Source: Schmidtea polychroa (Eukaryota). From it: DNA of 64,000 bases. Every line of letters begins with the position of its first letter. Positions within the stretch are counted from its first letter, which is position 1. The translations under genes were made by a program, and so were the position numbers. This document shows positions 21,078-64,000 of this stretch, piece after piece. The notes under the pieces were generated by a model. The model saw only the letters and a list, made by a program, of their open reading frames with translations, searched no databases and was not told the DNA's origin. The DNA is taken from NCBI GenBank assembly GCA_044892525.1, contig CM097886.1:120962001-121026000 (forward strand), given 5' to 3'.

Positions 21078-21122
<45 letters not shown>

Positions 21123-26485: not shown

Positions 26486-29240
26486 TAAAGATTGGAATCG
26501 AGAAATCTCGTATCGGGAATTCTCGAGACTTGTATATTTTTTTTATGTCTTGTTTCTCGAGAAGTGAAAAAGGTTAAAAAACGAGATTCTCGATTTCTCG
26601 AGATTTTATTTTCAAGTCCCGAGAAGGAAACCTTAAAATATTTCCCCATAGAAAATTCTTATTTATAGAAAATTCCCCAACAAATTATAATTTTTGACTT
26701 ATTTAATAGATGGTATATAATAGATAGTATATATTTATCACTCGATCCATAATACTTTTATTAAATTTCGAAAACCAATACTTTCAAATTATACAATTTA
26801 GTACATTTTTCTGTAGTTGCTGTGATAGCAATTGTTTTAAAAGTGCACAAAGCTAATTTTGTAATTTTAATTCTATTATTAAATTATTATTATATATTTA
26901 TACAAATCATACCAGAAAAAATTTAAATATTTCGTAAGTATTGATAATTAAATCATTTACAATTACAATCACAATTACTTTATTTAGAACTTAAAGTAAA
27001 GGGCTAAAGATGTCTGAAAATACCAAACCAAATGAGTATCAGAATTGTTGGCTAGAATTTGAAAGAAGTGAAGACCGAAATATGGCAATATGTAAATATT
27101 GCAAAAGTGAAATTAATTGCAAAGGATCAACAACAACTGGATTACACCGGCATTTAACAGCAAAACATGGTATGACCAAGACTTTGCAGGCTGGAAATAT
27201 AGGTTGCAAACGTATGAGAAGCAGTGCTACTACGAGCATAAATAATTATTTTAAACCAAAAAGTACACAACCACAAAGTCTTGGGGAAATTGTTTCAAAA
27301 CTAGCAGCGTTCGACAATATTCCCATTCAAAAAATTTCAAAATGTGAATTTATTCGAAAAAGTTTAGAATTACAAGGATTTGTTTTACCAAAATATCCAA
27401 CGGATATAATGAATATAATTTATAAATATTACAATGAAAAAAAAGATGATATTGTCAATAAAATAAAACTAATAAAATCAAAAAATCAAAAAATTTCTTT
27501 AAGTATTGACGAGTGGACCAGTTTTAGGAACCGACGATATTTAAATATACATATATATTATAATGCAAGTGGTATGTCGGAAAATCTAGGACTAGTTCGT
27601 ATACATGGTAGCTGCCCGGCAGATAAAATGGTCGATTTAGTAAATGAAAAGTTAAATTCATTTAATATTAGTTTTGATAAAGATATTATTGCCACTACAA
27701 GTGATGGTGCAAGCGTTATGGTAAAATTTGGAACTTTATCACCAGCTTTGTTGCAGCTATGTTACAATCATGCTTTACATTTGGCAGTCCTTAAAATATT
27801 TTATTCAAATAAAAATAATGAACATGAACATTCTTCAGATTCTGATTCATCAGATGATGTTGAAGACAATTTATTTTCAGATGAAGATAATAATTTAACA
27901 CAGGAAACATTTTTATTGAATGATATAGATGATATAAAACTAACAATTCTAAAAATTCGAATAATTGTTAAAAAATTTAAAAATTCCCCTGTACGAAATT
28001 CTGTTCTTCAAAAATATGTAAATGAAGTAGAAAATAAAGATCTACATTTATTACTTGACTGCAAAACAAGATGGAATAGTATGATCACAATGATAGAACG
28101 ATTTTTAAGGTTGATTGAACCAATAAAAAAAACGCTAATAGATTTAAATTTTTATGATTTATGGGATAATAATTTTACTCTTAAAGCAAAAAATATTTTA
28201 GAAGCGTTAAAACCAGTAGAAATTGCTGTTGAAGCATTATCCAGACAAGACACAAATTTATTAACATCGGAAGGAATATTAAGATTTTTGTTCGAATCGT
28301 TGACTGAGCAGAGTACACATTTAAAAGCCGTATTACTTACTGAAATAACAGATCAAATTTCGAAAAGGAGAAATGTACCTTTAGTCTCATTAATTAAATT
28401 TTTAAATAATCCCAATTCCTTAAATGCTGATGCAAAAGATTTTTTCAAATCTGCTTCGAAAAATGAAATGTTAAAAGTAGCAAAATCTATTATGCTGAAA
28501 ATTAATAAAAATGATGGTGATGGTGAAGGAGCTGTTGTTGGTGTTGGTGATCATCCAAATAATTGTGAGGAGAATAATATTGAAATAATTGAAATTGATA
28601 AATCTGCTGAAAAAACATTAAAAGAAAAACTTGAAGATTCGATCAACAATTGTTTGGCAACAGCTGAAATAAAAACAAATGTAAATTTATTATTAAAGGA
28701 AATGAATTTATACGAAATAAATGGACAAATTTCCCAAAACTTATTCAAAATAAAAGAATGTTTACTGACTATCAGACCAACATCAACACAAAATGAAAGA
28801 AACTTTTCAACAGCAGTAAATATAGTAACTAAAAAACGAACACGTTTAACTGACAAAGCAATTGATGCACTTTGTTTTTTAAAATTTTATTTCACAAATA
28901 TCAATAAATAAAAAATATTATATTTGTTTTTGTGGTATATTTGGTATAATATCATATGATGTATTAAATTTTCTATTTTTGCTATATATTCTTTAGTTTT
29001 GTAGTGAATAGTGTTAGTTTTAATTGTGTTAGTTTTATTTGAATACAATTTTTTTCTTTGAAATTTTCTTGTTTTCTCATTTTTTATAAACTATTTCAGA
29101 TTCTTTAATTTCTCGGAAAATTTCCCGGGTCCTGAAATTTCTTGAACGAGACTCTCGCTTTCTCGAGAATCATAATATTGCAAAAAACGAGACTCTCGGA
29201 TTCTCGAGAAATTAAAAAAGTTGAGAAATCCCAATCTCTA
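26486..29240 (+). mobile_element. Full-length hAT element (Ac/ZBED-like)
   Basis: TIR TA(A/G)AGATTGG(A/G)AT. 8-bp TSD AATTAGAT/GATTAGAT. TCTCGAGA subterminal repeats. Confidence 0.92.
27010..28911 (+). CDS. Intact hAT transposase with BED zinc finger
   Basis: 633 aa with CKYC...HLTAKH BED finger, SLSIDEWTS, TSDGASVM, CYNHALHL, CKTRWNS and PTSTQNERNFS. Confidence 0.95.
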   Translation: MSENTKPNEYQNCWLEFERSEDRNMAICKYCKSEINCKGSTTTGLHRHLTAKHGMTKTLQAGNIGCKRMRSSATTSINNYFKPKSTQPQSLGEIVSKLAAFDNIPIQKISKCEFIRKSLELQGFVLPKYPTDIMNIIYKYYNEKKDDIVNKIKLIKSKNQKISLSIDEWTSFRNRRYLNIHIYYNASGMSENLGLVRIHGSCPADKMVDLVNEKLNSFNISFDKDIIATTSDGASVMVKFGTLSPALLQLCYNHALHLAVLKIFYSNKNNEHEHSSDSDSSDDVEDNLFSDEDNNLTQETFLLNDIDDIKLTILKIRIIVKKFKNSPVRNSVLQKYVNEVENKDLHLLLDCKTRWNSMITMIERFLRLIEPIKKTLIDLNFYDLWDNNFTLKAKNILEALKPVEIAVEALSRQDTNLLTSEGILRFLFESLTEQSTHLKAVLLTEITDQISKRRNVPLVSLIKFLNNPNSLNADAKDFFKSASKNEMLKVAKSIMLKINKNDGDGEGAVVGVGDHPNNCEENNIEIIEIDKSAEKTLKEKLEDSINNCLATAEIKTNVNLLLKEMNLYEINGQISQNLFKIKECLLTIRPTSTQNERNFSTAVNIVTKKRTRLTDKAIDALCFLKFYFTNINK

Positions 29241-29736
29241 GATTAGATGACCTTACTTAGCAGTAATTTGTGTTAATGGTAAATTTATTTTGTTTTAACT
29301 GATAAATTGAATTAAGTGCAAATAAAGATAAATAAAATATTCAGGTTAATAACAATTTCTTTTCTGATAATTTTGTTAAAGTAAGATAAATAAAATAGTC
29401 AAGGTAATAATAATTTTTCAAATGTAAATTTCTAAATAACGTTTTCTTCATTGACAAAATAAGACAATATATTTTTTTTGTGTCATAATAATCTTCAAAG
29501 GTAAATTACACATGAGATAATTAGTAAAGGAAATGATGAGATGTAATAAATCAAATTTTGTTTGTGATCAAGTCTCCGTTCCCAGCGCTCTAATGTTAAT
29601 CAACTCAATTTAATACTAGTAGGAGTGATGATATCGTATAAGGGGATTGGTAAAATGACAAGTATTATCAAACTTTCTTCTGCATCCTATTCCGTCACAT
29701 TGTTATTTTAAATTATCATACCAACTTATCTTCAGA

Positions 29737-30462
29737 ATGTGTGAACCAAGCTTGCCGCCAAAAGGTCTGCAGTCATGCTTCTCATGCGCTGGTAAAAATG
29801 CAGACATAAAGATGCTGCAGGAGTACAATGGGGCTCTTAAGAAGCGGATCGAATATTATGAGGGTACGTGGTTCTCCCCACCACAAATGAAGGAGGAGCG
29901 AGCGAAAATATTGCGGCTGGAGCACTGTCGTGACAGTCTCCTGGAAGAAAGCCGTTGCCAACGGCTGACCATCAAAGCCCAGTCGGAGGCTCTCCACAAG
30001 ATCTATACTGAGAAAGAAATTCTACAAAGGGTTCGAGAATACCCGGTCATTGATGGGACTAATGTCTTCCCAGTACATCACCAACAAGGAAATCCGCAAC
30101 CCTCTAAGTCTCATTGAAGTGGGCATGGAAATGATTTCCCACCTCTCATCGTCCCAATATAGTCGGGATCTTCTAAAACAAATGACACCTCGACGGTGAA
30201 AGTCATCAATTCTGATTCTATGCCCAAGAAGCGGAAACGACCATCACGGGCCGAGAAAAACCAGAAGCGAAGGGATACCATCGCTGCTTTGGAGGCATCT
30301 CTGTTCGCTGCCCAGTCGTCTAGGAAACGAAGTCCAAAGGTTCAAGTACCTGTCTCAACCGGGGATTTTCGAATTATCTCCACTGAAATGTGTCAACTTC
30401 GAAAAGATGCCCGGCTACAGATGGATATAGACGCCCTGTTAATGGAGGGCGAGATGCAGTAA
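29737..30462 (+). pseudogene. ORF-X copy B (disrupted around 30060-30200)
   Basis: ATG follows acceptor CTTATCTTCAG. MCEPSLPPKGLQSCFSC...EHCRDSLLEESRCQRL. A second fragment carries KKRKRPSRAEKNQKRRDTIAALEASLFA and DIDALL. Confidence 0.85.
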
Positions 30463-30715
30463 TGAATGCCAACCATTCCGCACTCCGGATCCGGAATGCT
30501 GATATATCCTATGTACTCTACGTATAATGAACTGTGTTTTGCATGAATATCTTACATTTTTCATGTCGTTTAAATAAAAGTATTAGTATTAAAGCTGTTG
30601 TGTTAAATCTGACCATGTGATTTGAGTGTTTGAAAGTGACAAAATCTAAATAAACCAGTTCGATGTTTGAAAGACGTCCCTTGGACCAGGACGCAAGTTG
30701 GTGTACAAAAATGAG

Positions 30716-30855
30716 GTAAGGCCTTCTATGGCACTCGCGAACCCGCATTGTGAAGTCTACCGGGAGTAGTTCTAACATAGGAGCTCACCTGCTGGTAGAT
30801 TCCAACCTATGTGTACGATACCAGCGTGTTACACCATCACGGGTACACATAAGGG
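30716..30855 (+). ncRNA. Structured RNA motif M1 (unknown family)
   Basis: GTAAGGCCTTCTA; CTACCGG-GAG-TAGT-hairpin-GCTC-ACCTG-CTGGTAG; TATGTGTAC/GTACACATA stem enclosing GATACCAGC and a hairpin. Confidence 0.7.
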
Positions 30856-31059
30856 AGACGATTGCAATATCATGAAGGTTGTTTAGGGCATGTTATCTCT
30901 TTCCCCTTTGTAACCAACATAAGTTTAAACTGCATACAAATCAAGCCAACAGGGAATGATTTTATATTTCATTTAAGATGGATTTAAATTATGAAATGAG
31001 TTTCATATTTTGATTTTCGATTTAATTCAAAAGGATCGACCTGGGAGTAGTTAAATTAA

Positions 31060-31350: not shown

Positions 31351-31904
31351 ATTAACGATTTAAATTATATTTGTTTGGTCAGACCATTTCACATTTTTGT
31401 TTGTCAGATTGAATTATAATTAAAAAATGTTAATGCAATTTGGCCTAAATCGGACAAAATTTCTTAGCTACCGAACCTTGTTAGCTGGAAACTGAGTGTA
31501 ATACTCGAGTCGTTACTTAAGTTCCTTACCTTTCCTCCGTAGATAATGGTAGTAAGTGGTGTCATCGACATTGGTCCAGGTAATAAAATTTATATCTCCT
31601 TTTTGGTTTATTTTTAGTGATGGTGATTTTCCCTTATTTTCCAATTATTCTGACTGCAAATCTTCGGTATATGATGAAATTCGGATTATGGTAATATTAA
31701 ACTCTCGAAATCGGATTTTTTCGTTTCTCAAATACCTGATTTGTTCTAATAAACAAAATGTTGTTATTATTTTTATTTCGTAACAATGCAATGTAACAAG
31801 GTATCAAAGATGGTTGAATTTATTATATAGCGGCGAACCCTCGAGCTATTTCCTGGTTATCGCTTGACTCCTGTTGGGTAGTCGTGATTTTAGTTGTTGA
31901 TATT

Positions 31905-32037
31905 CCCGTACGTACACCGTGATGATGGTTCACGTTGGTACACAGGTCGGAACTGATGGACAGGTCAGCATCTGCGTTAAGACTACTATCCACCAAATTC
32001 ACAGTGCAGGTTCCTGGTTGCCGATAGAAGGCCTTAC
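31905..32037 (-). ncRNA. Structured RNA motif M2
   Basis: GTAAGGCCTTCTATCGGC; TGGTGGA-TAG-TAGT-hairpin-GCTG-ACCTG-TCCATCA; GTAC-CAAC-GTGA..TCAC-GG-TGTAC. Confidence 0.7.
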
Positions 32038-32291
32038 CCCTTAATATTCGCCTCTGGTCCGGCGAGACGGTCATTATACCTACATATTCAGTCATGTCAC
32101 ATCCCTCATGTTTACACGCGCAATTGACGTTCTTTATTACCTTATTTATTCACTTGCTTTTTTGCCCAATTCGATTTTCGATTCCTAATTTAATTAACCA
32201 AAATCTCAGATAATTCAGACGCCCTCCTTATCACAGACCTCGAAAGTTATAAAATGAATAGCAATTTAACATCAAAGATTTATTGACAATA

Positions 32292-32790
32292 GGAAGCATC
32301 AATTAAGGACGTCCCATAAAATAAGCACTTTTTGACCCCCTTGTCCCTTTTCTGGAGACCTCCCGACGGAGACATCCGTCCGAAAACAGAACTCCCTTAT
32401 TTTCAGACGAAATTTAGAACATAAAATTATAATATTAGGCAGATTATTTTGTTGCTGGTAATACATAATATTGTTTAAGCTTTAGTAAAAATTGTCCAAA
32501 TTTAAAGAGAATCCATTTTTTAAAACAAAATTAATAAAGTGTTGGGACAAAACTGTAATATTAAACTAATATTGATACAGGAGCATAATTTAATGAAATA
32601 GGGTGCTAGGTTATAGGCTACAAGTTTGCAACTCTTACTAAGAGATGGGAGATAATGTTCAAATAATAGGGGTGTTGGGTAGGTATTAGGTTTAGTCTGA
32701 GGATGTCCTAAGCACTTGGACCCCCTCCCCCATTGTCCCTCTGTAGAGACCCCCCCTCCCTCTTAGTGAACGTCCTTAATGGATGCTCCC
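32292..32790. mobile_element. MITE between ORF-X copy C and motif M2
   Basis: Inverted ends GG(A/G)AGCATC(A/C)ATTAAGGACGT; TSD not resolved. Confidence 0.7.
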
Positions 32791-32917
32791 ATAAAACATA
32801 TTTAGACACCGAAAAACAGACTCAAATCAAGCAATGGAATCATTCCTCACATATATTGTCTCAGAGTTTCCAAATAGTGTGGTCCCGTAGAGTTCATATT
32901 CATTGGGAATATATGCA

Positions 32918-33603
32918 TCAGATAGTAGCGTCTTCGGCTAGTAATGCATCAATATCGGCCTGAATCCAGGGGTCGTTTGGAGCCGAGGTTTTACCCGACG
33001 AAATTATCCGGAATTGATCAGGAGTGGCGACTGGAAGAATAACAGAGATGTTCGCGAACAAAGATGTCTCGAGCGCTGTACGTTTAGCTCTTTCGCTTCT
33101 TTACGCCACTCTGTGATGTTGTACTGACATTTATCGAGACGATGTTAGGCGCAGGATTGACGATACCTGGTCCTGCCGAGGGAATCAATACCGTGTTCCC
33201 ACTGAGAATCGGGTCGACAATTTTAGTCAGCTCAGGCCCATGACTGGTGCAAGACGATGCCACTGGTACGCTTACTTCATCGGTATTATGATGTAAGGGG
33301 AATATATTAACCCCATCTTTGATTGGGGACTCTCGTATTCTCCACTGCATCTCCGATTCGGTATTGCGCTTTTATCGTGAGCCTCTGGCATCTACTCTCT
33401 TCTAGGAAACTGTCACGGCAGTGCTCCAATCTCAGAACTTTCATCATATCCTCTTTCATTTGTGGTGGGAGAACCACGTGTGTTCGAGCGTTTCAATACG
33501 CTGTTTCAGAACCCCTGTGTCTGAAGTTTTCGAATATCGGCATTCTTGTCGGAGCACGAGAAACACATCTCGGCTCCTTTTGTGGTAGACTGGGCTCACA
33601 CAT
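32918..33603 (-). pseudogene. ORF-X copy C (several frameshifts)
   Basis: Acceptor TTTTTCTTCAG then MCEPSLP; CFSCSDKNADI; WFSPPQMKE..KVLRLEHCRDSFLEESRCQRLTIKAQ; ALETSLFA; DIDALLAE. Confidence 0.85.
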
Positions 33604-35487
33604 TATTCTGAAGAAAAACGATGAACTTATTTCCGCCAAAATACTCCCCTCCTTCCCATCTACTCTTTCCAATCTCTCACGAATACCCCATCCCCTTCAA
33701 TCATCATCGGCAATTCCCCAATTCCCTTTACAAAGTGTCCTTGACGGATAAGTTTAATTTAAACATTTAATTAACGGTTGAGGGTTCATGGATCGATAAA
33801 TGAAGTAATTATTATTATTGTATACTAAAATTTAAGAATTCCTAGTTTCCGAAATTACTTAACGTCATATTGTTGAGTTAGAGTTATATATATTTCACTT
33901 TATGATTTCGAATTTACCGTATTGTATTCTTACAAATTTTTTAAGGTAAGTACTATTTAACGTGATAATTAAATAAGTCTATAAGTAACAATTTTTGCGT
34001 TGGAATTTGGCGAGTTTTACTATATCCTTATTTGACTAAACGACAAGATGAGAAAAACTCTAGAAAACTTTCCACTTGGGGGAGTCGAGTGTATCGACTT
34101 TTTACTATAGGCTTATGTCCCTATTACTTTATTATCAAACTACATGTACTTAATTGTCTGTTTGCATTTACTACTTGGAGATTATGTAATCATTGGATGT
34201 TTGTTTATTAGTTTCAAACATCATTAATTAGATTTAGTGCTGTGAATTCGGTTCCTGTTTTATGTAAATAGACGGTTTGGTGAAATCTCCAAATTTTTTA
34301 TAAACATTAATTCGCCATTGATAAACAAAGCTGGGATCGCCGAGATATCTGTAAGCTCTACCCTACCATGGCGATTGTTTATGATTCGTCGACGTCGATG
34401 ATTGTGACTTAATGTTACGTGAATATTGGAAGATTTTATCCCACGTATGATATTAGTATTATTTCTATCAGATTGTCTTAGATTGAATTCGAATCTCTAT
34501 GTCGCTTACTGGACTACCCCTGGTAACTACTTACAAAGGTGTTCATCGTGTTCAAGAGTTCCATTTCCAGCTACTTATCTAAAAACGGAAGAAATTCTGC
34601 GAATGATCAATTTTCCACTATAGTTGTACGAAAATCCAAACTCTCATCATCTATATTCTCAGGACATTCTATCATTCTACGCATTTCTCTACTCGCCCCT
34701 CGAAAATGGCATTTGCTACTCTCGTTATCATATAAAATGTGAAACTGGCATCATTGATCCATCCACCCTGCATGGTACACTCAAAAAGCCACCGGTGCAA
34801 GCACTGACTACCTTCGAACGACCTTACAACACGGTTCGATCATTATAACAATTAAATAATTATAATAATAAAAATTATCTATTCTGCAAAATTAGAATAA
34901 TACTAAAAATCTATTTGGTGAATTAAAATAATAATCATAAAATTCCCACCGATGACCATATCACCTGATCCCGTGCATGAATGTTTCATTCATTGGATTC
35001 TTCCCGATTTCGAAACTTTCATAACCAATTTTCCGGAATTTCACATGGATAATTTCTATTTTCGGCGATTTGCATGCCATATTGAAAATCATAATAATGC
35101 TCTCTATCCATGCACGGCTCCTCAGGCAATATCGTCCGCAGGGCCCATCATGAAGAGAGAAAATGAAATTCAATGAAAATCTTTTAATTAAGTAAATGTT
35201 TTAATTCTGATTTATACAATAATTTATCATAAGACTGCTTAATAAAAATTTCATAACGATTAATATCAAATAAACTAAATAAAATAAACAGTAAATTACT
35301 TTTCCGTATATAAGTCTATGAATCGAAACAAGATTTCTACTGATTGTTCTCTCGAAATGGTCCCTCGAAATATGATTAATTAATCTTAATAGTATTTATT
35401 TCTGTATGAATCTGTCGTCAGGTCCTTCGGAGTTTTGAATGCTAAGTTGTCCTGTCGTATAAATTTAAAAGTTGCCTAACTAACTTA

Positions 35488-35900
35488 GCGGCCGCTATAT
35501 ATACTAATTTTTATCCAATCAGGACGCGATTGGTGTGTTTCTTATTATTTTCTTTGGTTTTTATAGCTTATTTGTCAATTTTAATTTATTCTTTTATTTA
35601 TTTTTCTATTCATTCTGAATTTTGACGTATTCCTTCGGCTGATTCTTTCCTAATTGGTTAATTTTAGTCCTTATTTTGCGTTTTAGATTGTTTCTTACTT
35701 ATTTCTTTTAATTTTTATTAATATTCTTATTTTATTCGGTTATTTATTTTATTAATTTTGTCGGTTTATTCAGTCTGTGTTGTTGGTTATTTATTATGGG
35801 ATTCTCATTTGTCGTTTTTTATTATTTTTTCAATTATTTAATTTCCCTTTTTCTTTTATTTAACTCGCCCATTTTTCCTGTTGTTGTAATTTAATTTCAG
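35488..35900 (-). promoter_or_regulatory. LTR-like promoter module P2
   Basis: Minus strand: A-rich tract, ATTGG at 35519-35515, TATATATA at 35503-35496, GCGGCCGCTAAGTTAGTTA (near-identical to P1). Confidence 0.55.
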
Positions 35901-36479
35901 ATGGGTTAGTTCCATTATTTTGGTGACTCCTGACTTTTTTGGTTTCCGTAATCTTATTACGACTTTTGTTAGTTTTTGAACTTAGTTAACCTCATGGTTC
36001 TTATTAAATTTTTTCGATCATAGCTCTATTTCGATTCACAGTTTTACAATCCTATTTCGATTCTTGGCTTTTATCCCAACTCGCTTGGCTTTACATAAAT
36101 GCAAAAGGTAGGTTTTATTTGGTTCCGAGACATGGACTTAATGATGATACTATACCGAGTCACCTCCTGAAATTCACTCGATGAGGTGTGATGTAGGGTA
36201 TATGCCTATGCGTAGGGTTAACTGGTTTCTTGGCTTATGATTTTTAATATTTAAGTTAATCAATGTGTAACCATCCATGGAAATATTCTTAGAAAATATA
36301 ATTATTGAAAAAATTATTTAGTCAAATTCAATATCATTACAAAGTCATCATCAAAATCAAATAATTTATCCTATCATTTGATTATTGTAAAAACTCTAAC
36401 TATTAACCTAACTATCATTAAAAATAAATTTTTATTTAAAATTTAAAAACGAAGTCAATAAAAAATGCTTTATTATTAA

Positions 36480-37511: not shown

Positions 37512-37799
37512 TTAATATATTATTTATATTAAATTGTTTTTTATTTTAATCATGTATGTCAGGAAATATTTCACCAATAAATAAAAGAAATATAAGTTAC
37601 GTCACTCCATATAAAATTCGTAATCACTCTGTATCGTTAGAAGTTTATTAAGTTATAACTTGCTACTACTATTTCATAAGTAAATTCTTTGAAATGTTGA
37701 TTTGGAAATCAATCTTCTCTTTTAATTTTTTTTGTTTTAATCTAGCGGGTAATTAGGCAAATGATACGACCTACATAGTATGTAAAAAGCACTACCAAT

Positions 37800-38175
37800 A
37801 CTCAAATTAATTTGAAAGTACTGAATAAAACAAAAGAATAAAATAGAAATAAAATTAATAATAAAATAATAAATTGATAAACTGCAAGCAGATGCACACG
37901 AAACACATTTTAAAGCATAGAAATAACATAAATCGCTGAAAAAGACACAGAAAATAGCAAAAAAATACTGTCTTATGAAAAGGCTATCCTTCGATCAATC
38001 AAAATAAAAAAAGAATTAAAATAAAAAACAACAAATTTTAACAAAATAAAGAAATAGGTTAATCAAAATGATTGGAATTTCAGATCAAAAAATAGAAATA
38101 AAACACGATCTGAAACACACACGATCGATCCTGATTGGTCGATGGCATGCACGACAGACTATGTAAAGGGCCGTC
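37800..38175 (+). promoter_or_regulatory. Degenerate LTR-like promoter module P4
   Basis: A-rich tract, CTGATTGG at 38131-38138, TATGTAAAGGGCCG at 38160. Confidence 0.35.
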
Positions 38176-38821
38176 TCAGTAGCTACATTACCCTTTTTAC
38201 TTTAGAAAATCTAGTCTAAACAATTCAGTAACTTGAATTACTTATTCTATTTATCTTTCAACGACTATCTATAGTTAACTTTTCTACGAATTTCCATCAT
38301 ATCACTTCGGAAGCATAATTTATTATTTTCAACATTGCAATTTCCTGCTTATAATTGTATAATTCAAAAAATAGTTTATTTTATCATCGGTCATTTGGAT
38401 CATTTTGGTATCACAATTATCGACATCAATTGTAATTTATAGTTTGTAGCTTGGAACCGAATTATTATACTCATAGTAAGCGTGGTTTGATATTTTATTA
38501 TTCATGTAATTAATAATATTATGTAATAACTATTGTAGTTAATATTTATTAAAATTTGTTAAAAGTGTCGTTCTTCCTCCTAAATCTAATATCTGTCTAA
38601 CAGTTTTAATTCATTAAATTTTATATTAGTATAATATTAAGAACTCATTAAATCTTATATTTTTATGATCATGCTAACTCATTAAATTTTACAATTACCG
38701 ATATTTTTAGCAGGGCTATTGTTGAGATTTCCAGTGTGTAGGGAAAGGTGACCTGCGTAATTGATAAAGTCGGGATCGATGAGTTGGAGATCGTCACCAT
38801 GGAGAATAAATAACTCGTAGA

Positions 38822-38955
38822 CATAAACCCTTCTAACGACACTCAAGAACCCGTATGAAACTTAAAGTGGAGTAGTTATAAGATAGTAGCTCATCTGCCC
38901 TTTATTTTTCACTGACAGTGGGCAGTACCAACATGACGGTTGTCATGTGTACGTA
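38822..38955 (+). ncRNA. Structured RNA motif M3 (degenerate)
   Basis: CCTTCTA; TAAAG-TG-GAG-TAGT..GCTC-ATCTG-CC-CTTTA; CAGTACCAAC-ATGAC-GGTT-GTCAT. Confidence 0.6.
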
Positions 38956-39290
38956 CATTAGTCATTATTTTTATAAATCATGAGCGTTGAACTGAGTCAA
39001 CAATCAACTATGAGTTTTAGTTTTGTTTACTCAAACGCCAACAGAAATATTGATGTAAACTATTTCATGATAAAAATTTCTTTATAAATGTTGTTCTCCT
39101 ATAATTCGCTGAAAAACACTAAATAATTTTATGTTTGGAAATAAGAAAAAGCCGAAACAAATCAAGAATTTAGAAATTATTTATTCACAGTATGATTATT
39201 TCAACAGTTGTCTTTAAACAAGATTTTGTGATTGTAAATCTGTATCGGCGACAATGTATAATTCTCCGTCAACCTCATCAATTACCAGTA

Positions 39291-39895: not shown

Positions 39896-40255
39896 AACTA
39901 TAAATTAGTACCAACTTCAAAGCACAATCTTTCCGGATAGAAATCAAATAAAGAAAAAATAACCGTATGTTTATGTTCCAATGCGTCTGGAAAACATAAA
40001 CTGCCACCGTTTTCCATTGAAAAATATGTGAGATCACGTTTCAAAAATATTAATGTGAAAAGTATTCCTGTTAATTTCGTTCTCAAAAATCAAAAAATCG
40101 AGCCACTCGTAATTCAAAACGAGTTCGAATTACACGCTCTAGTCGCCGAAATTGAGCTGGAGATTAGGATATTAGGAATTTTAGTAATGTTTTTCTGTAA
40201 CAAGATGTTAGTAAAGAGTTCACAGTACCAGAAAGTAGAAAGGAACGATTCTAAC

Positions 40256-40380
40256 GTAAGTCCTTCTATCGGCCGTATGGGACCCGCGAGAAATATTATA
40301 TGTGAGTAGTGTTAAGACAGACGCTCATCTGCCCTTTAATTTTTCGCCGACGTTGAACAGTACCATTCTGATCGTCGTCG
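40256..40380 (+). ncRNA. Structured RNA motif M4 (degenerate)
   Basis: GTAAGTCCTTCTATCGGC; GAGTAGT..GCTCATCTGCCCTTTA; GCCGAC; CAGTACCA. Confidence 0.6.
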
Positions 40381-41608
40381 GGGGCTCTCTATTCGGTATA
40401 GAAAAAAACATGTACGCTGATAAACTGAACCAAATTTTCAATCTTTGCTAGACCAAGCGCCAACACTGTTCATAGAAGACGTGTGTAGAGCTTTGTGCTA
40501 GTTGGAACAAACAATATAGTATCTGATGAAATGAATATTTAAAATAATTACGAAATAAAAAATGGACCTAAAAACAGGAGGAAAATACTCAGTAACACAA
40601 CTTTATAAACCTAACCTATATAATTTAAAAAGAATGTTGAATTTGTTAATAAAATTATAGTTAATTTATAATTTATTAATATATAATCTTTAATAATCCC
40701 AATTCTATTGTTATTATTAAATTTTTATTGCTATATAATAAATCATAATTAAGGAAAATAACCTAAATAACCAAGAAATCTATACAAATCAAATCTATAA
40801 CTAATCAAAGCTAGACGTTATTATAATTGTACTTATCCCAAATTGTGGAAGCATTAATCAGATGAATGATTTGTTATTTGTTAAACTATAAAATCAGTCA
40901 ATTAACAGCTTATTAAAAGTTTTAGTTTATTAAATTTATTTGTGTTTTAGTTATGACAGCACAATCAAATGTAAAAATATTGGTGTTGCATTACGATATA
41001 ATCCGAAGAAAACTAAAAGGTCAACATTAACAAATCATTGGAAGAATTATGTGATGCATTTCATGTGAATAAAGATTATGCCTCTGATATAGGGAGAATT
41101 TTACCTATAAGTACGCTAATGGACCATGTACAAAAAGAATGAAGATATTGTTGAAGGTGCTTTCTATTTGTAGTAGCATATCATGAACGTCTGAAGAAGC
41201 AAAAATTCCAATAGTGTTTACAGATAAATTGATATTTGTCATCAAAGGTACATACCAGTTGTTAACTGAAATATCGCCAGTGTAAATATCGACATTGATT
41301 AGAATTTATTTAAATTACATTATTTCAATTATTAACACCTCGGATGATGCTTCAAGAAAGAAGCAGCCATTAATCAATAGATGCAATCCTCCGAATTTAA
41401 TGATAATTATACGAATTCCCAAACTTGTTAATACATTTGTCTTTGATTAATTATGAAATATCTGTCCAATTGTAATGCACAAAGGAATATAACTACTTAT
41501 TTTAGAAAGACTGTAGATGATTCATTACTTTATTATTTTATTATCCTTTATTACAGTTTTTACATCTTATGATATTAATTGCCTTTTAAAATCCAAAGTA
41601 TATGTTAA

Positions 41609-43678: not shown

Positions 43679-43693
43679 TTAAATATTTTAAAC

Positions 43694-53749: not shown

Positions 53750-54464
53750 TTCTAAATCATGTTTAAAAAATAAAGAACGCAAATATATTTTAGTTTTATT
53801 TATTTAATTATTATTATGATAAATAATAATCTTTTAATTACCAAAATAAGCAAAAATTCAGTGAAAATCTCTGTATATTAGTTTAAAATAAAAGTTCAAT
53901 ATTCGGAACTAGTAAACAGTGAAAAGGCAAAATTAAATGATGAAAAAAACCAATGTCAATACTGTCATTTGTACATAGAGAATAAAGAATCGTGGTTTGA
54001 ATTTCATTCAAAACGATTGGAAAAGTGAAGCAATTTCTTGGTTTGTTATTAACCGGAATTATAATTTCAACTTGTGTAAATTCTATACAAAAAATGGGGT
54101 ATTAATTTGCATTATATAAAAGGTAAATTGTTTGGAATTCGTTCCATCTTGAACGGGAAATTACTATTACGATTAATATTATTAGTAATGACAGTAGTCT
54201 CTGGGGTAGCTTATATTTTCTGATATTGCTTGATTTTCTGATATTAAGAATGTTGTGTAAAACTACCCCCAATAGGCGGTAATAATCGGTGTCATAATGG
54301 TATTTCTTCATATAAATGTTGATTCCAGTGGTAAAGGGAGTTCTGTAAAATTTTGTCTTGTTTTTCTTTGCTATAATGTTGAAGTGGGGAAAAATTTGTG
54401 GTGATAAAGGAGTAATTGATTATGGAATCTCGAGATCTTGACCAATATTTCGAATACCGGAAAA

Positions 54465-54606
54465 GACTTAAGTCCTTCTATCGGCAGTCGAAAAGTGGAA
54501 AAGTCGAGTTAGGGTGAAGGAGTAGTCCTAAGGTAGGGGCTCACCTGCTTCATAGTAGTTCACCGGCATGGCACAGTACCAACATGATGTAAATCATCTG
54601 TCATGT
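54465..54606 (+). ncRNA. Structured RNA motif M5
   Basis: TAAGTCCTTCTATCGGC; TGAAG-GAG-TAGT-hairpin-GCTC-ACCTG-CTTCA; CATGGC..GTCATG stem enclosing ACAGTACCAAC and ATGAT-GTAA-ATCAT. Confidence 0.72.
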
Positions 54607-54607
54607 T

Positions 54608-55737
54608 GTGGAAATAATCGTGTGGGTTTTTGGTCAGCGGTCCGCAGAATATGCTGTAAGGTCATTCTTTTCGGACTATCATCCTCTAGTAATTAGTAAC
54701 CTCTTGTTGACCCTGCCGACTACCCAACAGTATAATGATATCCATAATGATGCCAATACTGTATCACCTCTTCATCCCGTGTCCTGCTTAGGCGATCATC
54801 CCTCTTCACCTCAAGTGGCCGCTCCAGGCAAAACTGAAAAATCGCAGAACAAGTTCTCTTCAAATTTCCAATTCCGTTGCGAAATGAGGAAACTCAACAA
54901 CTGGAAAAAATTCAAGGTAGACCCGAGTCATAAACACCGCGTTCGGGACCTTAACACCGCTCTTTCTCTTTAAACAGACCTGCCTCAGGATCCGGCTCTC
55001 TTGTCAATGCTCCTACGATATCGTGCAACGACACTGTGTATCTTACACCTGCTCTTTCACCCCCTCTTCTGTCTGCAACCATTACGGCTAGTGCAGCCAC
55101 CGACGTCATCTCACCCCAAATTGTTCAAAAGCTCATCCATACTCCAATTTTATCTCCTAACACAGATACAACTAACAACAAGCATATAACACCACAAACT
55201 CAAACTTCACAGACCCCCTCCTGAACACAGACCTCTTCCCAGAACTCCGACATCACTCATGACAACAATACACCACCGCGCAAAGTGACCATGGCCAACT
55301 TCTTTCTAACAATCAAACGACACAACCAAGCCACAGTCAACTTATATTCGTCGCCAACTGACAGGACAAGCAATAACACCCCGCCCCAATTTCATCAACC
55401 CAAACACTAACATGATGGCTCGGACCACCTCTTTTCTCTACCGTGACACAAATCGAAATCACCTGATAGCTCTATGTCCACTGTGAACCCTCAACAAATA
55501 AAGAAACTTCATCACAAGTCAAAAAACGCCCATAGCCGCAGATCATACTTTAACGATAAGCGTAATATCAATAACAGAATCGACAAAATGGAAAACGCCC
55601 TACATAAAATTGCCCACCATCTCACTAAACTGGCCTCTGACAAATATGGCATGGACGCCACGCGCCTGTCCCCAACGCACCCCAGCCTCTCCACATCTTA
55701 CCAGTTCGTTAATGAAGACTCACGCGTCGACTGCTAG
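54608..55737 (+). pseudogene. Degenerate Pro/Ser/Thr-rich ORF of unknown origin downstream of M5
   Basis: Locally GC-richer chain of short same-strand ORFs; no diagnostic motif recognised. Confidence 0.3.
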
Positions 55738-58240: not shown

Positions 58241-59644
58241 CAAAGTCGGGTTAGTGAATTATTTATTGTGAAATACGAAATATTACCAATACAGATTCCG
58301 TTAAGAAAATGATTCTACTGAAAAGATGGTGCGTGTTGTATAGGTGTTATATATTGTATATGCGAGTTATGTTGCTTGTAAAACCTTGAACGTTTTTGTT
58401 ATTTTACTGTTCTGGTTTAAAAATTAATAAGGATTTTCCCTTTATAGTTTACAGTAGAAATGGTAAAATATTTTGGCGGCCACTACTGATTTTGGGTCGC
58501 TATTTATATTATTTTCATGGGCGTTAACATAAGGAAATTTATTTATTTATTTAAAGCGTATGTCTTTGTTAAAATTTAATCATGTTTTTCTTTATATATT
58601 TATTTAGCTTTATATTAAAAATGTTCTTTGTTAAAATATAAAATTATGCTTTTATATATTTATTTAACTTTAAAAATATTTCCATTATTCTTTGTTAAAA
58701 AAATGTTATTCTTTCATTATTTGCTTAAGCCGAGCTGTCGCAAAATTCGTTTACTCGGGCCGAACTGTTATAATTTCTTCAAGCGTTGTTTTATTATATT
58801 TATTGCTCTAACGGAGCTGTTGTTCGTTTACAAATATCATTCAATAGAAATTATTAAAATTATTTAACGAGATTTAATTTGAAAATTATTCTATTTTTTT
58901 TGACAAAATTTAATTTGTAAATTTATTTTTATATTTTGAAAAGAAAATTTTCCCTTTAAATTATATAATTAAGTGTACATAACACAAAATAAATAAACCA
59001 TCAATGCATACGATATAAAAATGTTAATAATAAATTGTTCATCACATATTATATACAAGTTAACACGAGTTATCAAATTGTTTATTGAATAGATTTGATA
59101 TCGGAATTGAATTATATGGATTATATTGTATTGTCTGGTTTTGTCATTTTTCTTTATCTGATTTACGCATAAATATTAACTCTGTATCTATTAGCTCCTG
59201 TCCTATAATATTTTGTGAGTTTAAAATTTTCGATGACCCTGCCTCTGTCATCCAACAATAGTAAATAAATAAATTTAAAACATTTAAATGATGATGATAT
59301 TCAGAGTTTCAGTCTAAAATGGGAAACAATGGATGTTTATTTGCAAGTCGATTAAAATTGTGATCAATAATTAATATTGTGTATAATAAAATTTAAATGA
59401 ATTATATAAGTAGTGGGAAAGCGGTCCACTAAACCAGCGGCCCTCTGGGACAAAGAAATACCCCACCCCCCGGCATTAAAAAATTTTTTCAAAGTCAAAT
59501 TTTAAACAAAGGCATATGCTGGGGCACTACTCGGTTGACCACCCTTAATTCAACTTTTAGCCTAGGAGATGAATGCCCATTCCGATTATGCTTGTCATTA
59601 GTTTGCCAACCCCGAGCAGGACCCGTACATAACCTACTCTCCAA

Positions 59645-59787
59645 CATAGCACCCGTGAATTACTTCACGTTGGAACCGTGCTATGCCGGCGAGACGCCAG
59701 TAAGCAGGTGAGCCACTCCCTTCGGACTACTCCTTACTGAGGCCTCGACTTCCTACCCTTGACTGCCGATAGAAGGACTTACGTCTC
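59645..59787 (-). ncRNA. Structured RNA motif M6 (best preserved)
   Basis: GAGACGTAAGTCCTTCTATCGGC; CAGTAAG-GAG-TAG-TCC-GAAG-GGA-GTGG-CTC-ACCTG-CTTACTG; CATAGCAC-GGTTCCAAC-GTGAA-GTAA-TTCAC-GG-GTGCTATG. Confidence 0.75.
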
Positions 59788-60074
59788 TTTGTTCTGTCAC
59801 CCATCGCAATGCCTCTAGTTTGGGTTTCCAACTGACTAATACTTCTCGAATTTTAGAGTCTCTCAATATTATTTACCAACTTTGTACTGAACCTATTACA
59901 AAAGAAAATAAATATAAATAGACGAAAAATGGTTTATTTTTAACATTTATGTACAGATAGGTCGATAATTTACACAACAGAATCACAGGGATAAGAAGAA
60001 TGTAAGAACAGAAAACCGTTATTAGTTTGATTTCAGGATTCTCCGTAGGATGAGGTCGTTTCACAGGAAAGTTC

Positions 60075-60824
60075 TCATTTTTCCCACTCCGTGTCGGCCA
60101 GCAGTTCTTCCAGGTTGAAAAATTCGGAGGCGTTCTCCTCCCATGTTACCCCAGCGGCAGATATAATTCGCCCTGGTATGCCGGAGGTTAGATCAACCGT
60201 GGCAGGGAGTTCGTTGACTTGAATCGCGAGATCCGTTGGTTGCTGGAGCTGCTTCGCGGCTATTCGCTCCCGCTGCTTCTTTTTGCGTTCGGCCCTTGAT
60301 AATTGCCGACGCTTTGGCTTTGCGGTCGATGAATTGTTCGGGGCTGCTGCGGATGTAGAGGCGATGTTAGGCGGCACCTGACTATTTCCAACAAAGATAA
60401 CTTCAGGCTGTTCCGGCGAAAGTTGAGTTTCTACGCACGGCCGGCAAGACTTCTTAGAAGGAGGTGACGATCTGGCCGATGTGTCATGGTGTGCCGGAAA
60501 AAGATTGTCGGCTTCATGGATAGGAATTTTTACTATCTTCCTAGTGGTCGCTGCCTGTACATATACTTTGTGCAGCGCTTCGGACTGCTCCTTTATTAAG
60601 CTTCTTTGGGAACGACTCTCGGAGATTAGAGCGTCCCGACAATGTTCACTTCGGTATAACCTCTTCTGAGTTTCTTTCATCTGGGCGGGACTAAACCATG
60701 TCCCTTCTAACTCGTCTATTTTCCTCTTATACCGTCCAATCTGGGTCTGTAGGTCTTTGATTATTGCATTCTTGTCTGAACAAGAAAAGCAGGGTTTGAG
60801 AACAGGTCTTGAATTGGGTAACAT
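60075..60824 (-). CDS. ORF-X copy D, intact 249-aa unknown protein
   Basis: ATG follows TTTTCTTCATAGCCATCAG. PCFSCSDKNA, coiled coil, EGTWFSPAQMKE, EHCRDALISESRSQR, Arg/Lys-rich KRRQLSRAERKKKQRER and C-terminal FFNLEELL. Confidence 0.85.
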   Translation of the reverse strand: MLPNSRPVLKPCFSCSDKNAIIKDLQTQIGRYKRKIDELEGTWFSPAQMKETQKRLYRSEHCRDALISESRSQRSLIKEQSEALHKVYVQAATTRKIVKIPIHEADNLFPAHHDTSARSSPPSKKSCRPCVETQLSPEQPEVIFVGNSQVPPNIASTSAAAPNNSSTAKPKRRQLSRAERKKKQRERIAAKQLQQPTDLAIQVNELPATVDLTSGIPGRIISAAGVTWEENASEFFNLEELLADTEWEK

Positions 60825-62622
60825 ATCTGATGGCTATGAAGAAAAGATAGAACTAAAATAAGATAAACCAAATTATAACGTCATCATCCCGACACAATTA
60901 TTCGTCAACTAGGTATTCCTATAGAAAAGAAACGGGTAGCTAGCAAGAGGAGTTTCTTTGGATTCATCAATATTCATTCCCTCTGGATTATTTACTTACA
61001 AGAAAACTGACCGGCAACACATGACTGTGTCTAACGAAGGTAACGCATTATTGTTGAAAATGAAAATTACATGTTTATGAAATTATTACAAATTGAATTT
61101 GCCTTGAAAATGGTAAATAGTATTGAGGAGCTCAAACTAAAATACATGACTAATTTATAAAAGGAAATTATTCAATATGCAGATTTTATAGATAGATAGG
61201 TAAATCAATTGCAATTAATTATTAATTATAAATATTAACTTTTTTGAAATTCCAATAATGTGGACTTAAAACATCCGATCGCCGCTGTTGATTATCTGTG
61301 GCTAGTGTTAAATCCATTAATGACTGATGATTTTATCTATTGGTTGAAACTACACATGACGCACCAGGTAGGATTTCTCATGACAATTGTTCGCTGCGAA
61401 TCTGCCTACTGCTATTGGATAACTGAACAATTCTAATGCTTGTGACGCATGGAAAATTATTTTCGTACGATTGCGCTTAATCATGATTGTGTTGTCACTG
61501 ATGGGTATTCTCATACGGGTTCCGTTTACTGGAATTCACAATTTGTGCCTGTGCCTGTATGCGTGTGTATTCACTCCATGGAACTTTAATCCGATTTACA
61601 TGTTGCGTGGATTTTCAGATGTTACCTCACACTGCTTTGGATTGCTGTCCATCAGAAAAATTAAATTAGGAAATTCTCTCTCGTCGTAACTGTTGGATAT
61701 ATTGCTTCGTGGATGAATTATTCAACTATTCAAGATACATGCACCGATCTTAACTCGTGGATATCGACCATCTCGGAATTTATACAAATATGAATTTTTA
61801 TGCACTATCTCCTATGTAAGTATGTCAAAATTTGTTTTCCTTTTATGTAATCAAATAAAGATCTTTGCATATTTTGTCTTGTTTTCGATTGTATATTGAT
61901 GATATATATACATAGCTATTCTACTGCCAAAATAAGTGTTTTTAAACTACATTCATTGTTAGAACCGAGTATGAGTGGCAATTTCGAGGTGAAGGAATAA
62001 TCTACAGACAGATGATGCTTACTCTATTAACGAAAATGACAGATCTAGACCTACGGTTGACGGTGACACTAAATTTTCAGATTACGAGAATTTTAGTTTG
62101 AAGAATTATTGTAGATACGAAGACTTTTGACTCGCTCAGTCACTGTGATTCGCTGCTACTACTTTTCCTACAAATTAGATTGATTCCACTCCTTCTTTCT
62201 GATTATTCCAGAGACATTTTAGAGTGTCCTTCAGCGACGGACCCGTGAGGAAGCCCCCACATTACGGCCCGAATCAGCTGCGTGATTGAAACGTCCCACA
62301 CCCACCGGATGAGCACCCGAAGGCCCATTACACCATGGTATGGAACGTCTCAACTCCACGTTCCTCGTGAGATTAAAATCATAAAATAATAACCCATAAA
62401 AACAATTATAAAAATCTAGAATAACTCGTTTATTATTAGTGATTACGATTAAGCAGCTAAATTATTTAATAAATTAAACTCATTATTACGGAATCAAACG
62501 AAAAGAAAATCATTTCAAATTAAAAATTTAATTATTTCGCAAATATACATGATCATTATTAACCGTTTAAAATAAAACAAAAATATAAAATAAAATGTCC
62601 TTACTAAGTGTTTTAAATAGAT

Positions 62623-63209
62623 TTATAGGCTGAGTCGGAAGGTACTGGATCGAATTAAGTATTAGTCGAAGTCTAAGTAGATTTTTAACTGCGGATGTGC
62701 TAATGTTTCTGGTTTCTGAATCGAATTCCTGTAGGTCGCTGTTGTCTGTAAAATTTTGGAGTTAACTGTGTACTATAGAAATTTCACTTACCTGTAAAAT
62801 TTTGGAGTTAACTGTAATTTTAATGATTTTGGTGCCTGTTTATATAGTAATTTTTTATTTGTGCGGACCAATCAGAATTGAGTACCGCTTAATTTTGTTA
62901 CTTTAATTAATTTTTCTTGTTTTTTGGTTATTTCTTCCTATTTTCTTTATTTTTAATATATTTTCTATTTATTTTCTTTAATTTCCTTATTATTTACTGA
63001 ATTCTACGTTATTTTCCGTCATTCTATTGTCCTATTTTAATTTATTTTATTTTTATAATTTTTGTTTTAATTCTTATTTTCTAATTATTGTTTTTCTTAT
63101 ATCTTACTCTATTTTATTCGTAAATTTGTTATTTTATTTTTACTTTCCTCGCATCCTGCTTATTTTACTCTCTTAATTTTCAAAATTAATTTTCCGACTC
63201 AGCCCAACA
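62623..63209 (-). promoter_or_regulatory. LTR-like promoter module P3
   Basis: Starts TGTTGGGCTGAGTCGGAA. ATTGG at 62872-62868, CTATATAAA at 62847-62839, donor-like CAG|GTAAGT at ~62792. 13-bp inverted repeat GGCTGAGTCGGAA at both ends. Confidence 0.6.
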
Positions 63210-63483: not shown

Positions 63484-63999
63484 TCAACGACTGGATGATG
63501 GTTGGGAAGATTCATTACTAGATATTCTGGGTGGACTTGTGATGGTGTTGGTCATTTCGGTTAGGTTTTGTTGGGTGTTGTTTGGTTTCGAGTTCTGACA
63601 TTTTTTCTTCATTTCATAGATTTTTAAGAGGGTTATCAGGCATAATAAGATAGTTTCTGCGATCACCACATACATGAGATAATGGGTGTCGCTGGTTTCT
63701 GGAGGTGTTTCTGTGCTTTCTGCGAGATTTCCAAGATTTTCTTGTTGCACTTGTTGCTCCAACTGGTCGAATTGTTGGATTTGTTCGAGTATTCGTTTGT
63801 CTATCATTTGACACATGGGATTCTTTTTACACATTGTTCTGATGTTGTTGACATATGGTCGGACTGATTGAAGGTTATGGATGATGTTGGTTTTTATTAC
63901 ATTGGGGTATGTGCATTGGCAGGACTCTTGTATGGGTTTGTGGTTCGGATTTCGGAAATCTCGTACACTTTTCGGTTGGGTATTGGTTTGTTGGCTTTC
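63484..63999 (-). CDS. 3' end of a type-I membrane (env-like) ORF, open to the window edge
   Basis: Frame open from 63999: Cys-containing segment, Gln-rich helix, hydrophobic YLMYVVIAETILLCLITLL, basic KIYEMKKK, then a Ser/Thr-rich tail. Confidence 0.55.
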   Translation of the reverse strand, partial: ESQQTNTQPKSVRDFRNPNHKPIQESCQCTYPNVIKTNIIHNLQSVRPYVNNIRTMCKKNPMCQMIDKRILEQIQQFDQLEQQVQQENLGNLAESTETPPETSDTHYLMYVVIAETILLCLITLLKIYEMKKKCQNSKPNNTQQNLTEMTNTITSPPRISSNESSQPSSSR

Positions 64000-64000
64000 C

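Follow-up and report, generated by a model that had tools for sequence, protein, structure and literature searches.

What kind of gene is the intact 249-aa open frame near the end of this stretch, to what family does it belong, and what could its product do? The window, by which we mean the whole 64-kb stretch of DNA analysed here, is an AT-rich eukaryotic stretch crowded with DNA transposons and retroelement fragments, and it contains four versions of the frame, referred to below as ORF-X:

60075..60824, minus strand: ORF-X copy D, intact 249-aa open frame
3889..4688, plus strand: ORF-X copy A, frame-broken
29737..30462, plus strand: ORF-X copy B, two in-frame stops
32918..33603, minus strand: ORF-X copy C, frame-broken

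The ORF-X protein family

A tblastn search of the window with copy D recovered exactly three extra copies, namely A at about 3.9-4.6 kb on the plus strand (E 5e-39), B at 29.7-30.5 kb on the plus strand (E 5e-36) and C at 33.6-32.9 kb on the minus strand (E 9e-13), while a family profile search found no fifth copy in the window. These are the four diverged copies that a sequence-only reading of this DNA had listed; copy D is intact as it stated (a 249-aa open frame on the minus strand, 60824-60075), and the motifs it named are all present in the sequence. That reading had restricted the DIDALL/NLEELL-type end to B, C and D. The end is indeed found in those three, but A also has a tail of this kind (DINAML-type, in another frame), so that it is present in all four copies. 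Both in-frame stops of B are located after the HH motif, C has several frame breaks, and the frame of A is broken near its start and near its end.

Codons were compared over a gap-free core of 102 codons in A, B and D. Amino-acid identity in this core is 52-63%, and identity at third codon positions is only 29-42%, versus 65-78% at second positions. Synonymous sites are saturated (pS 0.75-0.94), and dS is therefore not computable, while pN is 0.26-0.33; the resulting pN/pS of 0.35-0.40 has bootstrap limits of 0.24-0.54. For copy C, values come from a single unbroken stretch of 35 codons (pS 0.87-0.93, pN 0.09-0.33). Saturation of pS at these values of pN indicates that the protein was conserved while the copies diverged, and a pN/pS ratio below 1 supports, at the level of codon comparison, the purifying selection that had been proposed for ORF-X. 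The region 59500-61000 is partly contained in 7 of the 15 sequencing runs listed, with no RNA run listed among these 7, and these matches have no bearing on expression.

Relatives of ORF-X exist outside this window. A profile built from A, B and D matched 15 proteins among 1.84 billion (best E 1e-14), and a second profile search added 4 more, for a total of 19 outside relatives. Conversely, a profile made from these 19 alone scores D, A and B at 65-82 bits, compared with at most 8.5 bits for 500 shuffles. The 10 relatives that were looked up are single records without names. In 16 of the 19, the ORF-X part is fused to an unrelated domain, a different one each time: the first search gave fusions to neurotransmitter transporter, glycine cleavage P, CRAL-TRIO, ribosomal L21, subtilase, ABC, actin, phosphatase, hAT transposase, DAD, ion channel and M1 peptidase domains, and four more fused relatives came from the second. 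No fusion to gag, reverse transcriptase (RT) or integrase was present among the 19. A methionine lies 39-48 residues ahead of the GTW motif, matching the start of D, in 11 of the 17 relatives with a locatable motif. From the variety of unrelated partners we infer an artefact of gene prediction, in which a scattered exon with a strong acceptor was joined to host exons by the predictors, as expected for an exon dispersed by a high-copy mobile element. In an unrooted tree with long branches, from which 3 short rows were excluded, the three local copies tested form a clade separate from the 16 outside rows (100/99).

None of our searches attached a known domain to the family. The best Pfam match of D as a single sequence had an E value of 0.99 and assigned no family; a word-indexed protein search with D confirmed 0 of 608 candidates; the best ESM Atlas hits (0.82 and 0.84) were unnamed clusters at noise level; and 0 of 34 pattern matches in viral contigs were confirmed. 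With the structural model, a BFVD fold search returned nothing at E<=0.001 and Foldseek found no match in the PDB, while VIA-align gave a best Z of 6.4 to generic coiled coils, a value that neither shows nor excludes a family. ORF-X thus stands, as the sequence-only reading had suggested, as a real family without a name by sequence, profile and fold searches. Within the literature that we searched, whose scope lay outside Repbase and subscription journals, we found no description of the protein, of the RNA fold discussed below or of a gene within a planarian LTR.

Predicted architecture of the protein

Copy D is laid out as a coiled-coil core (residues 13-99), a Pro/Ser/Thr linker, an Arg/Lys-rich helix (168-193) and an acidic-hydrophobic tail. 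AlphaFold places helices at 13-39, 46-99 and 177-193 and leaves the linker disordered (mean pLDDT 67.5, pTM 0.32). For residues 8-116 an in-register parallel homodimer was predicted, with a score of 0.54 versus 0.00 for the best control, contact agreement between runs of at least 89% and pLDDT of at least 76. Among solved structures, the mark used for this dimer score was passed by 21 of 30 pairs but 0 of 23 single chains from microbes, and by 17 of 29 pairs, 0 of 30 single chains and 1 of 7 pairs lacking an older solved relative from eukaryotes; since long parallel coiled coils are common among solved structures, the pass of ORF-X may reflect mere likeness to them. The invariant residues L66, Q73, I77, Q80 and L84 are predicted dimer-interface positions, and the wider family keeps G41-T-W-x-x-P46, R58, R63, L66, E69, R71 and Q73, together with R74, I77, Q80, S81, L84, P110 and H113. 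On these models ORF-X is predicted to dimerise through a parallel coiled coil, and the two long helices and the modelled dimer uphold the coiled coil previously read from the sequence.

The cluster of basic residues exceeds that of shuffled sequences in D, A and B (p<=0.007) and in 8 of the 12 relatives tested (p<0.03). In several relatives the stretch is almost pure arginine with one asparagine, and such pure arginine with asparagine is the pattern of RNA-groove helices. Weak profile matches of this stretch, with E values of 0.02-0.25 overall, were to the Elp1 basic region (E 0.02) and to a nodavirus capsid N-terminus (E 0.14), both of which bind RNA. The Pfam REV family (PF00424) matched 1 of 15 relatives, at an E value of 0.0013 that lies under the curated cut-off and over the basic stretch only, and gave no match in D. 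By pattern, neither D nor A contains a leucine-rich export signal, and the matches to this pattern in B and in 3 of 12 relatives are at chance level, being found in 15-70% of shuffles. Past the basic region, D has an acidic tail (12 D+E versus 4 K+R), as do most full-length relatives; in A and B the tail has no net acidic character.

The suggestion that the CxxC, EHC and HH groups form a metal site did not hold up. Conservation of the candidate ligands was counted in the 15 relatives of the first profile search, wherever the residue was covered: C12 and C15 are kept in 0 of 10, H61 in 1 of 15, C62 in 5 of 15 (it is mostly alanine), H85 in 0 of 15 and H112 in 4 of 13, and H113 alone is well kept (12 of 13). 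Moreover, the model spreads CxxC (12-15), EHC (60-62) and HH (112-113) along or past the extended helix pair. A metal site is therefore not a feature of the family, because its cysteines and histidines are not conserved in outside relatives. The CxxC is retained in all four local copies, and as residues 12, 14 and 15 fall in the predicted interface, a four-cysteine zinc clasp between the two CxxC motifs of a dimer is possible in the local subfamily.

LTR-like units and a structured RNA

The sequence-only reading, supported on the family and the coiled coil but not on the metal site as a family feature, overlooked the LTR-like mobile context in which ORF-X lies. This context is made up of the following features:

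59517..63209, minus strand: LTR-like unit D, 3693 bp, with a TGTTGG start, a CCAGCA end and no target-site duplication
62838..62872, minus strand: CCAAT-type (ATTGG) and TATA boxes of unit D, preceded by an A-rich stretch and located 2048 nt upstream of the ATG
62786..62794, minus strand: splice-donor consensus CAG/GTAAG of unit D, about 55 nt past the TATA box; candidate short first exon
60827..60844, minus strand: pyrimidine tract and CAG of unit D, ending 2 nt before the ORF-X ATG; candidate splice acceptor
59933..59938, minus strand: AATAAA of unit D, 137 nt after the ORF-X D stop codon
24595..30919, plus strand: LTR-like unit B, TGTTGG...CCAACA, TAAG on both sides, 3571 bp without the inserted transposon
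26486..29241, plus strand: DNA transposon, presumably hAT-like, in the leader of unit B, with a transposase-like ORF (26995-28911) and a near-perfect 8-bp duplication
31872..36085, minus strand: LTR-like unit C, with its right end (CCCAACA) at 31872, its promoter at 35519 and a degenerate, tentative left end
37695..39043, plus strand: sister unit F, short (1349 bp; TGTTGA...CCAACA) and flanked by GAAA on either side, with a promoter at 38134 and no ORF-X
54450..54729, plus strand: 3' part of unit E, with RNA motif and CCCAACA end
40238..40465, plus strand: 3' part of unit G, with RNA motif and CCAACA end
23756..23986, minus strand: 3' part of unit H, with a diverged RNA motif and a degenerate end

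Units B, C and D share a common layout over 3.6-3.7 kb, in which an A-rich stretch, CCAAT and TATA boxes, about 2 kb of leader, a splice acceptor, ORF-X, AATAAA, an RNA fold and CCAACA follow one another. Unit C also has a foldback insertion of about 500 bp at 32.3-32.8 kb, and the unit of ORF-X A has been cut by other elements on both sides, with loss of its promoter and RNA motif. The CCAAT/TATA pattern, which was composed after its sites had been seen, occurs 4 times on both strands of the 64 kb, each time (4/4) upstream of an RNA motif on the same strand. It precedes the ORF-X ATG by 2010 nt in B (transposon subtracted), about 1920 nt in C and 2048 nt in D, and in unit F it lies 0.7 kb before the RNA motif. 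A pyrimidine tract with AG is located 1-4 nt ahead of the ATG in all four ORF-X copies, compared with 110 of the 2209 ATGs in the window (5%). Units B and C show no clear splice donor past the TATA box, unlike D with its perfect one.

The ends of the units were also informative. The window has three instances of TGTTG[GA] leading into an A-rich stretch, at the left ends of B, F and D, and a CCAACA-type end is found 160-260 nt past the anchor of the RNA motif in 7 of 7 copies, although it is degenerate in D and H. Exact 4-bp flanking duplications are present in 2 of the 3 delimited units (TAAG in B and GAAA in F, words with frequencies of 0.004 and 0.009 in the window), and the flanks of C match at 3 of 4 bases, at its tentative left end. 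All 241 pairs of start and end words yield 7 four-base flank matches, so such matches are not rare when the ends are not fixed beforehand. Terminal inverted repeats amount to 2-6 perfect bp, or 7-12 of the first 20 bases. Unit D contains a near-perfect inverted copy of its left end, 18-20 bp long, at 62615-62645 (minus strand). As this copy sits 585 nt inside, the first 0.6 kb of D could be a separate short LTR, and the copy is possibly the relic end of an ancestral short LTR. Weaker end-like words were seen by eye at similar offsets in units B and F. The leader of unit D also has a GC-rich (48%), self-complementary-looking block at 62180-62390 (minus strand), without an Rfam match.

The RNA fold downstream of ORF-X is a non-coding motif of about 130 nt with two stems, present in 7 copies in the window. 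In addition to those in units E, G and H, these are:

59635..59800, minus strand: RNA motif of unit D, beginning with a GTAAG donor-like word
30698..30860, plus strand: RNA motif of unit B
31900-32055, minus strand: RNA motif of unit C
38805-38966, plus strand: RNA motif of unit F

Of 26 predicted pairs, 13 change on both sides, and 85.6% of cells pair, compared with 71.7% in shuffled alignments (0/500) and 35-44% in slid controls, the fold having been tested on the same alignment from which it was derived. In all 7 copies, folding z-scores are lower on the strand in the sense of the ORF than on its complement, with just 2 of 7 folding below a z of -2. Because the covarying fold is strand-biased, an RNA stage of the element is suggested. 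The motif lies downstream of the ORF-X stop, on the same strand, by 261 nt in B, 887 nt in C (about 390 nt without the foldback insertion) and 299 nt in D. Of the 4 ORF-X copies, 3 are accompanied by a motif on their own strand less than 1 kb away (P 0.0007 under random placement). The remaining 4 of the 7 motifs do not adjoin ORF-X, and unit F lacks it even though both of its ends are intact. AATAAA precedes the motif by at most 260 nt in 5 of 7 copies, as judged at the motif level; in B, C and D the distance from AATAAA to the start of the motif is 70-160 nt, and 4 of the 7 copies open with GTAAG.

Comparison with known RNAs yielded no match. Rfam 15 gave 0 matches at gathering score in the window (the best around D, at E 1.7, lies off the motif), and with no Rfam match a Penelope or ribozyme reading was set aside; likeness to hammerhead, HDV, twister or CTE, compared by eye, was unconvincing. 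Exact 17-18-mers of the motif matched 9 metagenome and 3 viral loci, which we attribute to chance, as none of the 12 carries the fold or ORF-X.

What, then, is the unit? B and F look like gypsy-type solo LTRs, because they start with TG, end with CA and are flanked by 4-bp target duplications. The same ends and duplications mark Ginger elements too in the available text of PMC2836005, and the unit might instead be a non-autonomous, integrase-mobilised DNA element (Ginger- or Polinton-like), or else a patchwork of a 0.6-kb LTR and unrelated DNA. Such a reading, which we consider quite improbable, would account for a window with neither pol nor paired LTRs, for the resemblance of unit F to an internal-deletion derivative and, in the case of a patchwork, for the inner inverted repeat of D at +585. 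Ginger, however, has inverted repeats of 40-270 bp and, for Ginger1, CCGG/CCGT targets in the same text (PMC2836005), as opposed to 2-6 perfect bp and the targets TAAG and GAAA here, and Pfam found no integrase, and hence no integrase-like transposase of the Ginger type, in the unit frames scanned. A Polinton gene cassette was rejected, given the unfitting ends and 4-bp duplications and the lack of any Polinton-type protein by Pfam in the flanks. A patchwork is hard to reconcile with the equal 2-kb spacing in three copies whose synonymous sites are saturated, or with the single duplication that brackets the whole of unit B, and a strand-biased, covarying fold argues against a DNA element. The TG...CA ends, the 4-bp duplications and inverted repeats of only a few bases, together with a promoter and a poly(A) signal inside the unit and a strand-specific fold, thus fit gypsy-type solo LTRs rather than Ginger.

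Some features expected around complete elements are missing. We saw no paired LTRs around gag-pol in the window, a TGG primer site follows 0 of 7 right ends, Pfam matched no RT or integrase in the 30 flank frames scanned, and no purine tract precedes unit D (7/15 purines). The missing primer site and purine tract are expected for solo LTRs, but this does not account for D. If the upstream TATA box were the only promoter, R would span about 2.9 kb; retroviral R regions are typically far shorter. In an alternative topology, ORF-X may lie in U3 under its own promoter with the fold in R.

A lineage-specific host gene family, for example of a metal-binding nuclear protein with D as the working gene, would explain why D is intact despite the decayed right end of its unit and the absence of a duplication, and why all local copies retain CxxC. 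We regard this as very improbable, since 3 of the 4 copies are broken, the copies lie within TG...CA units among nested transposons, the relatives are stray exons fused to 16 different unrelated domains, and the cysteines and histidines are not conserved outside the local copies. Overall, the ORF-X unit is probably an LTR. From its sequence features, ORF-X is most likely an accessory gene within the long terminal repeat of a gypsy-type LTR retroelement family, and the copies in the window look like residents of solo or truncated LTRs.

The surroundings contain many further elements. Upstream of unit D, an open C-terminal protein part (63484..64000, minus strand) has one hydrophobic stretch and is env-like by anatomy only; it has no database match, and its identity as env could not be demonstrated. 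A foldback element of about 14 kb (8430-22670; arms 8434-11928 and 18132-22662, up to 98% identical) interrupts a gag-like frame. At its centre is a 983-aa ORF joining proteasome-subunit, ubiquitin and DUF1759 domains, the last of which we take to be of the BEL/Pao gag type, with an 878-bp exact duplicate of the start of the ORF. Unit H (23756-24594 and 30924-31871, minus strand) appears to be interrupted by unit B, with C adjoining. It includes a GC-rich, stop-containing frame (24480-24100) after an acceptor-like site; this frame before the RNA motif of H is not homologous to ORF-X (hhalign probability 0.3%) and is perhaps another LTR cargo gene. Just past copy A, a 985-bp TGTTGA...CCAACA unit (4968-5952, minus strand) with a GTAT duplication and no RNA motif is probably a solo LTR of another family. 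At least six transposase frames, presumably of different hAT-like subfamilies and two of them long and open, lie in 508-2971, 26995-28911, 42300-45600, 48532-50181 and 51865-53592. Inverted arrays of a short GGGGATTAAGTGAC-type repeat at 43686-44180 are likely ends of a small DNA transposon, and a decayed Pro/Thr/Ser-rich frame with a coiled-coil-like end and no Pfam match follows unit E (54730-55780, plus strand).

A possible regulatory role for ORF-X

At the motif level, each presumed LTR reads as a small but complete transcription unit, after which come the RNA fold and the right end. If the unit is an LTR, this layout implies a short, spliced ORF-X mRNA with its end at the AATAAA and a longer read-through RNA that alone carries the fold. 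The best explanation that we can offer, and a tentative one whose chances we put slightly short of even, is that ORF-X is an LTR-borne, RNA-binding regulator of the element's own transcript, comparable to Rev, Rex or Tat. In this scheme, transcription from the LTR promoter would at first end at the poly(A) signal of the same LTR and yield, after splicing, a short mRNA for ORF-X. The protein would enter the nucleus, where the two basic helices of a dimer would bind the element's RNA, with the fold as the most likely site. Lying past the poly(A) signal, the fold would therefore mark read-through, genome-length RNA, the production or export of which ORF-X would promote. Such an early-to-late switch would work like that of retroviral Rev/Rex or Tat without homology to them. 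By analogy with these systems, we infer that a dimeric arginine-helix protein made from the LTR would be a natural partner for such a fold. Given that the unit is an LTR, we lean slightly towards a nuclear RNA-binding regulator of the element, and given such a regulator, we consider it an even call whether its target is the fold. The full combination, a gypsy-type element with both a whole spliced gene and the RNA switch that its product binds in the LTR, and with the protein licensing read-through or export, is rather unlikely.

The basic stretch and the tail can also be read at the level of DNA. The main alternative to an RNA regulator is a protein, again encoded in the LTR, that activates the LTR promoter in the manner of foamy-virus Tas or HTLV Tax. 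It would form a coiled-coil dimer, with the basic region as a nuclear signal or a DNA grip and the acidic-aromatic tail as an activation domain, and the fold would be an ordinary U5/R packaging or processing signal unconnected with the protein. This alternative is unlikely in our estimate, but not without merit: the tail is acidic in D and most full-length relatives and carries the hydrophobic DIDALL/NLEELL word, D is without an export signal, and the fold is also found in units that lack ORF-X. In bZIP proteins, the basic region lies directly beside the coiled coil, whereas in ORF-X the basic stretch is about 70 residues past it; the stretch is also pure arginine with asparagine in several relatives, and the A and B tails are not net acidic. 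Tas and Tax provide precedents for such a transactivator in the available text of PMC12789967.

Alternatively, ORF-X could be an LTR-borne factor that acts in trans, including from solo LTRs, and either counters host silencing (an anti-piRNA or anti-heterochromatin factor) or targets the RNA or chromatin of the host. As a self-contained transcription unit, the gene would multiply along with solo LTRs, PIWI controls planarian LTR elements according to the available text of PMC8532177, and the conserved, outward-facing R58, E69 and R71 suggest a partner surface. On the other hand, no known silencing suppressor was matched in our sequence or fold searches, and the fixed place of ORF-X before an RNA fold is left unexplained; we give this possibility little weight.

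Returning to the RNA-regulator reading, the available text of PMC12789967 supplies the closest retroviral parallels. Retroviruses with a poly(A) signal in R must suppress the copy in the 5' LTR, which HIV-1 and foamy viruses do via U1 at the splice donor, while in HTLV-1 an RNA fold bound by Rex bridges the distance to the poly(A) signal (PMC12789967). Like Rev, Rex, Rec and Rem, ORF-X is a small protein with an arginine-rich helix and a predicted surface for oligomerisation, and it is probably translated from a spliced RNA; the structured RNA in the LTR region is reminiscent of the RexRE of HTLV-1 (PMC12789967). Unlike Rev-type proteins, the homology of ORF-X is limited to the basic stretch, where the PF00424 match does not extend to D, and ORF-X D lacks an export signal, has a 90-residue coiled coil and has its whole gene inside the LTR. 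An LTR retrotransposon can encode its own export factor, because CERV of the C. elegans element Cer1 exports the genomic RNA of that element (PMC10309623). CERV, as the available text describes it, is likewise an extra LTR-retrotransposon protein from a spliced mRNA, with a leucine zipper and a nuclear signal, and the export of genomic RNA requires it. It differs in its length of 517 aa, in the exons that it has in common with gag and in its M and G-protein-like domains; no RNA-binding motif has been recognised in it, and beyond nematodes it is without obvious homologues (PMC10309623). ORF-X, at about 250 aa, within the LTR and with a clear arginine-rich helix, is set apart from it by description, not by sequence comparison.

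Genes within LTRs are known from retroviruses, and ORF-X is, in our assessment, a new protein family in a known kind of arrangement. MMTV sag and lentiviral nef lie in or overlap the U3 of the LTR. Like them, ORF-X is a protein gene in a terminal repeat, which gives two copies per element and survives in solo LTRs, although Sag is a membrane protein. The main TATA box of sag and nef is located after the ORF, whereas the only clear CCAAT/TATA of ORF-X is 2 kb before the gene. MMTV sag is listed among retroviral genes in the available text of PMC12789967. The giant gypsy-like planarian element Burro/GYPSM1, with its 4,900-aa polyprotein, has very long LTRs and accessory ORFs as the ORF-X units do, and env homology where the frame upstream of unit D is env-like by anatomy only, a likeness drawn by description and not from LTR sequence; its accessory ORF lies upstream of the polyprotein and its env between gag and pol, and the available text of that source mentions no LTR gene (PMC6431247). 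The additional ORFs of plant LTR retrotransposons are also conserved, of unknown function and proposed to help retrotransposition, but their position is internal, in most cases between pol and the 3' LTR, and many run antisense, as far as the available text of PMC7264820 describes them.

These findings add to the LTR retroelements an unnamed protein family and an unlisted structured RNA, arranged in a way for which complex vertebrate retroviruses are the main known examples, and they account for public chimeric gene models in which an ORF-X exon is fused to unrelated domains. To our knowledge, it is for most families still an open question by what means a retrotransposon brings its unspliced RNA beyond an early poly(A) site and exports it from the nucleus; a candidate protein and a candidate RNA site that lie side by side here bear on this question. 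If the proposed circuit is true, a Rev/Tat-like mechanism would have been invented independently and packed into a terminal repeat, from which solo LTRs could supply the protein in trans.
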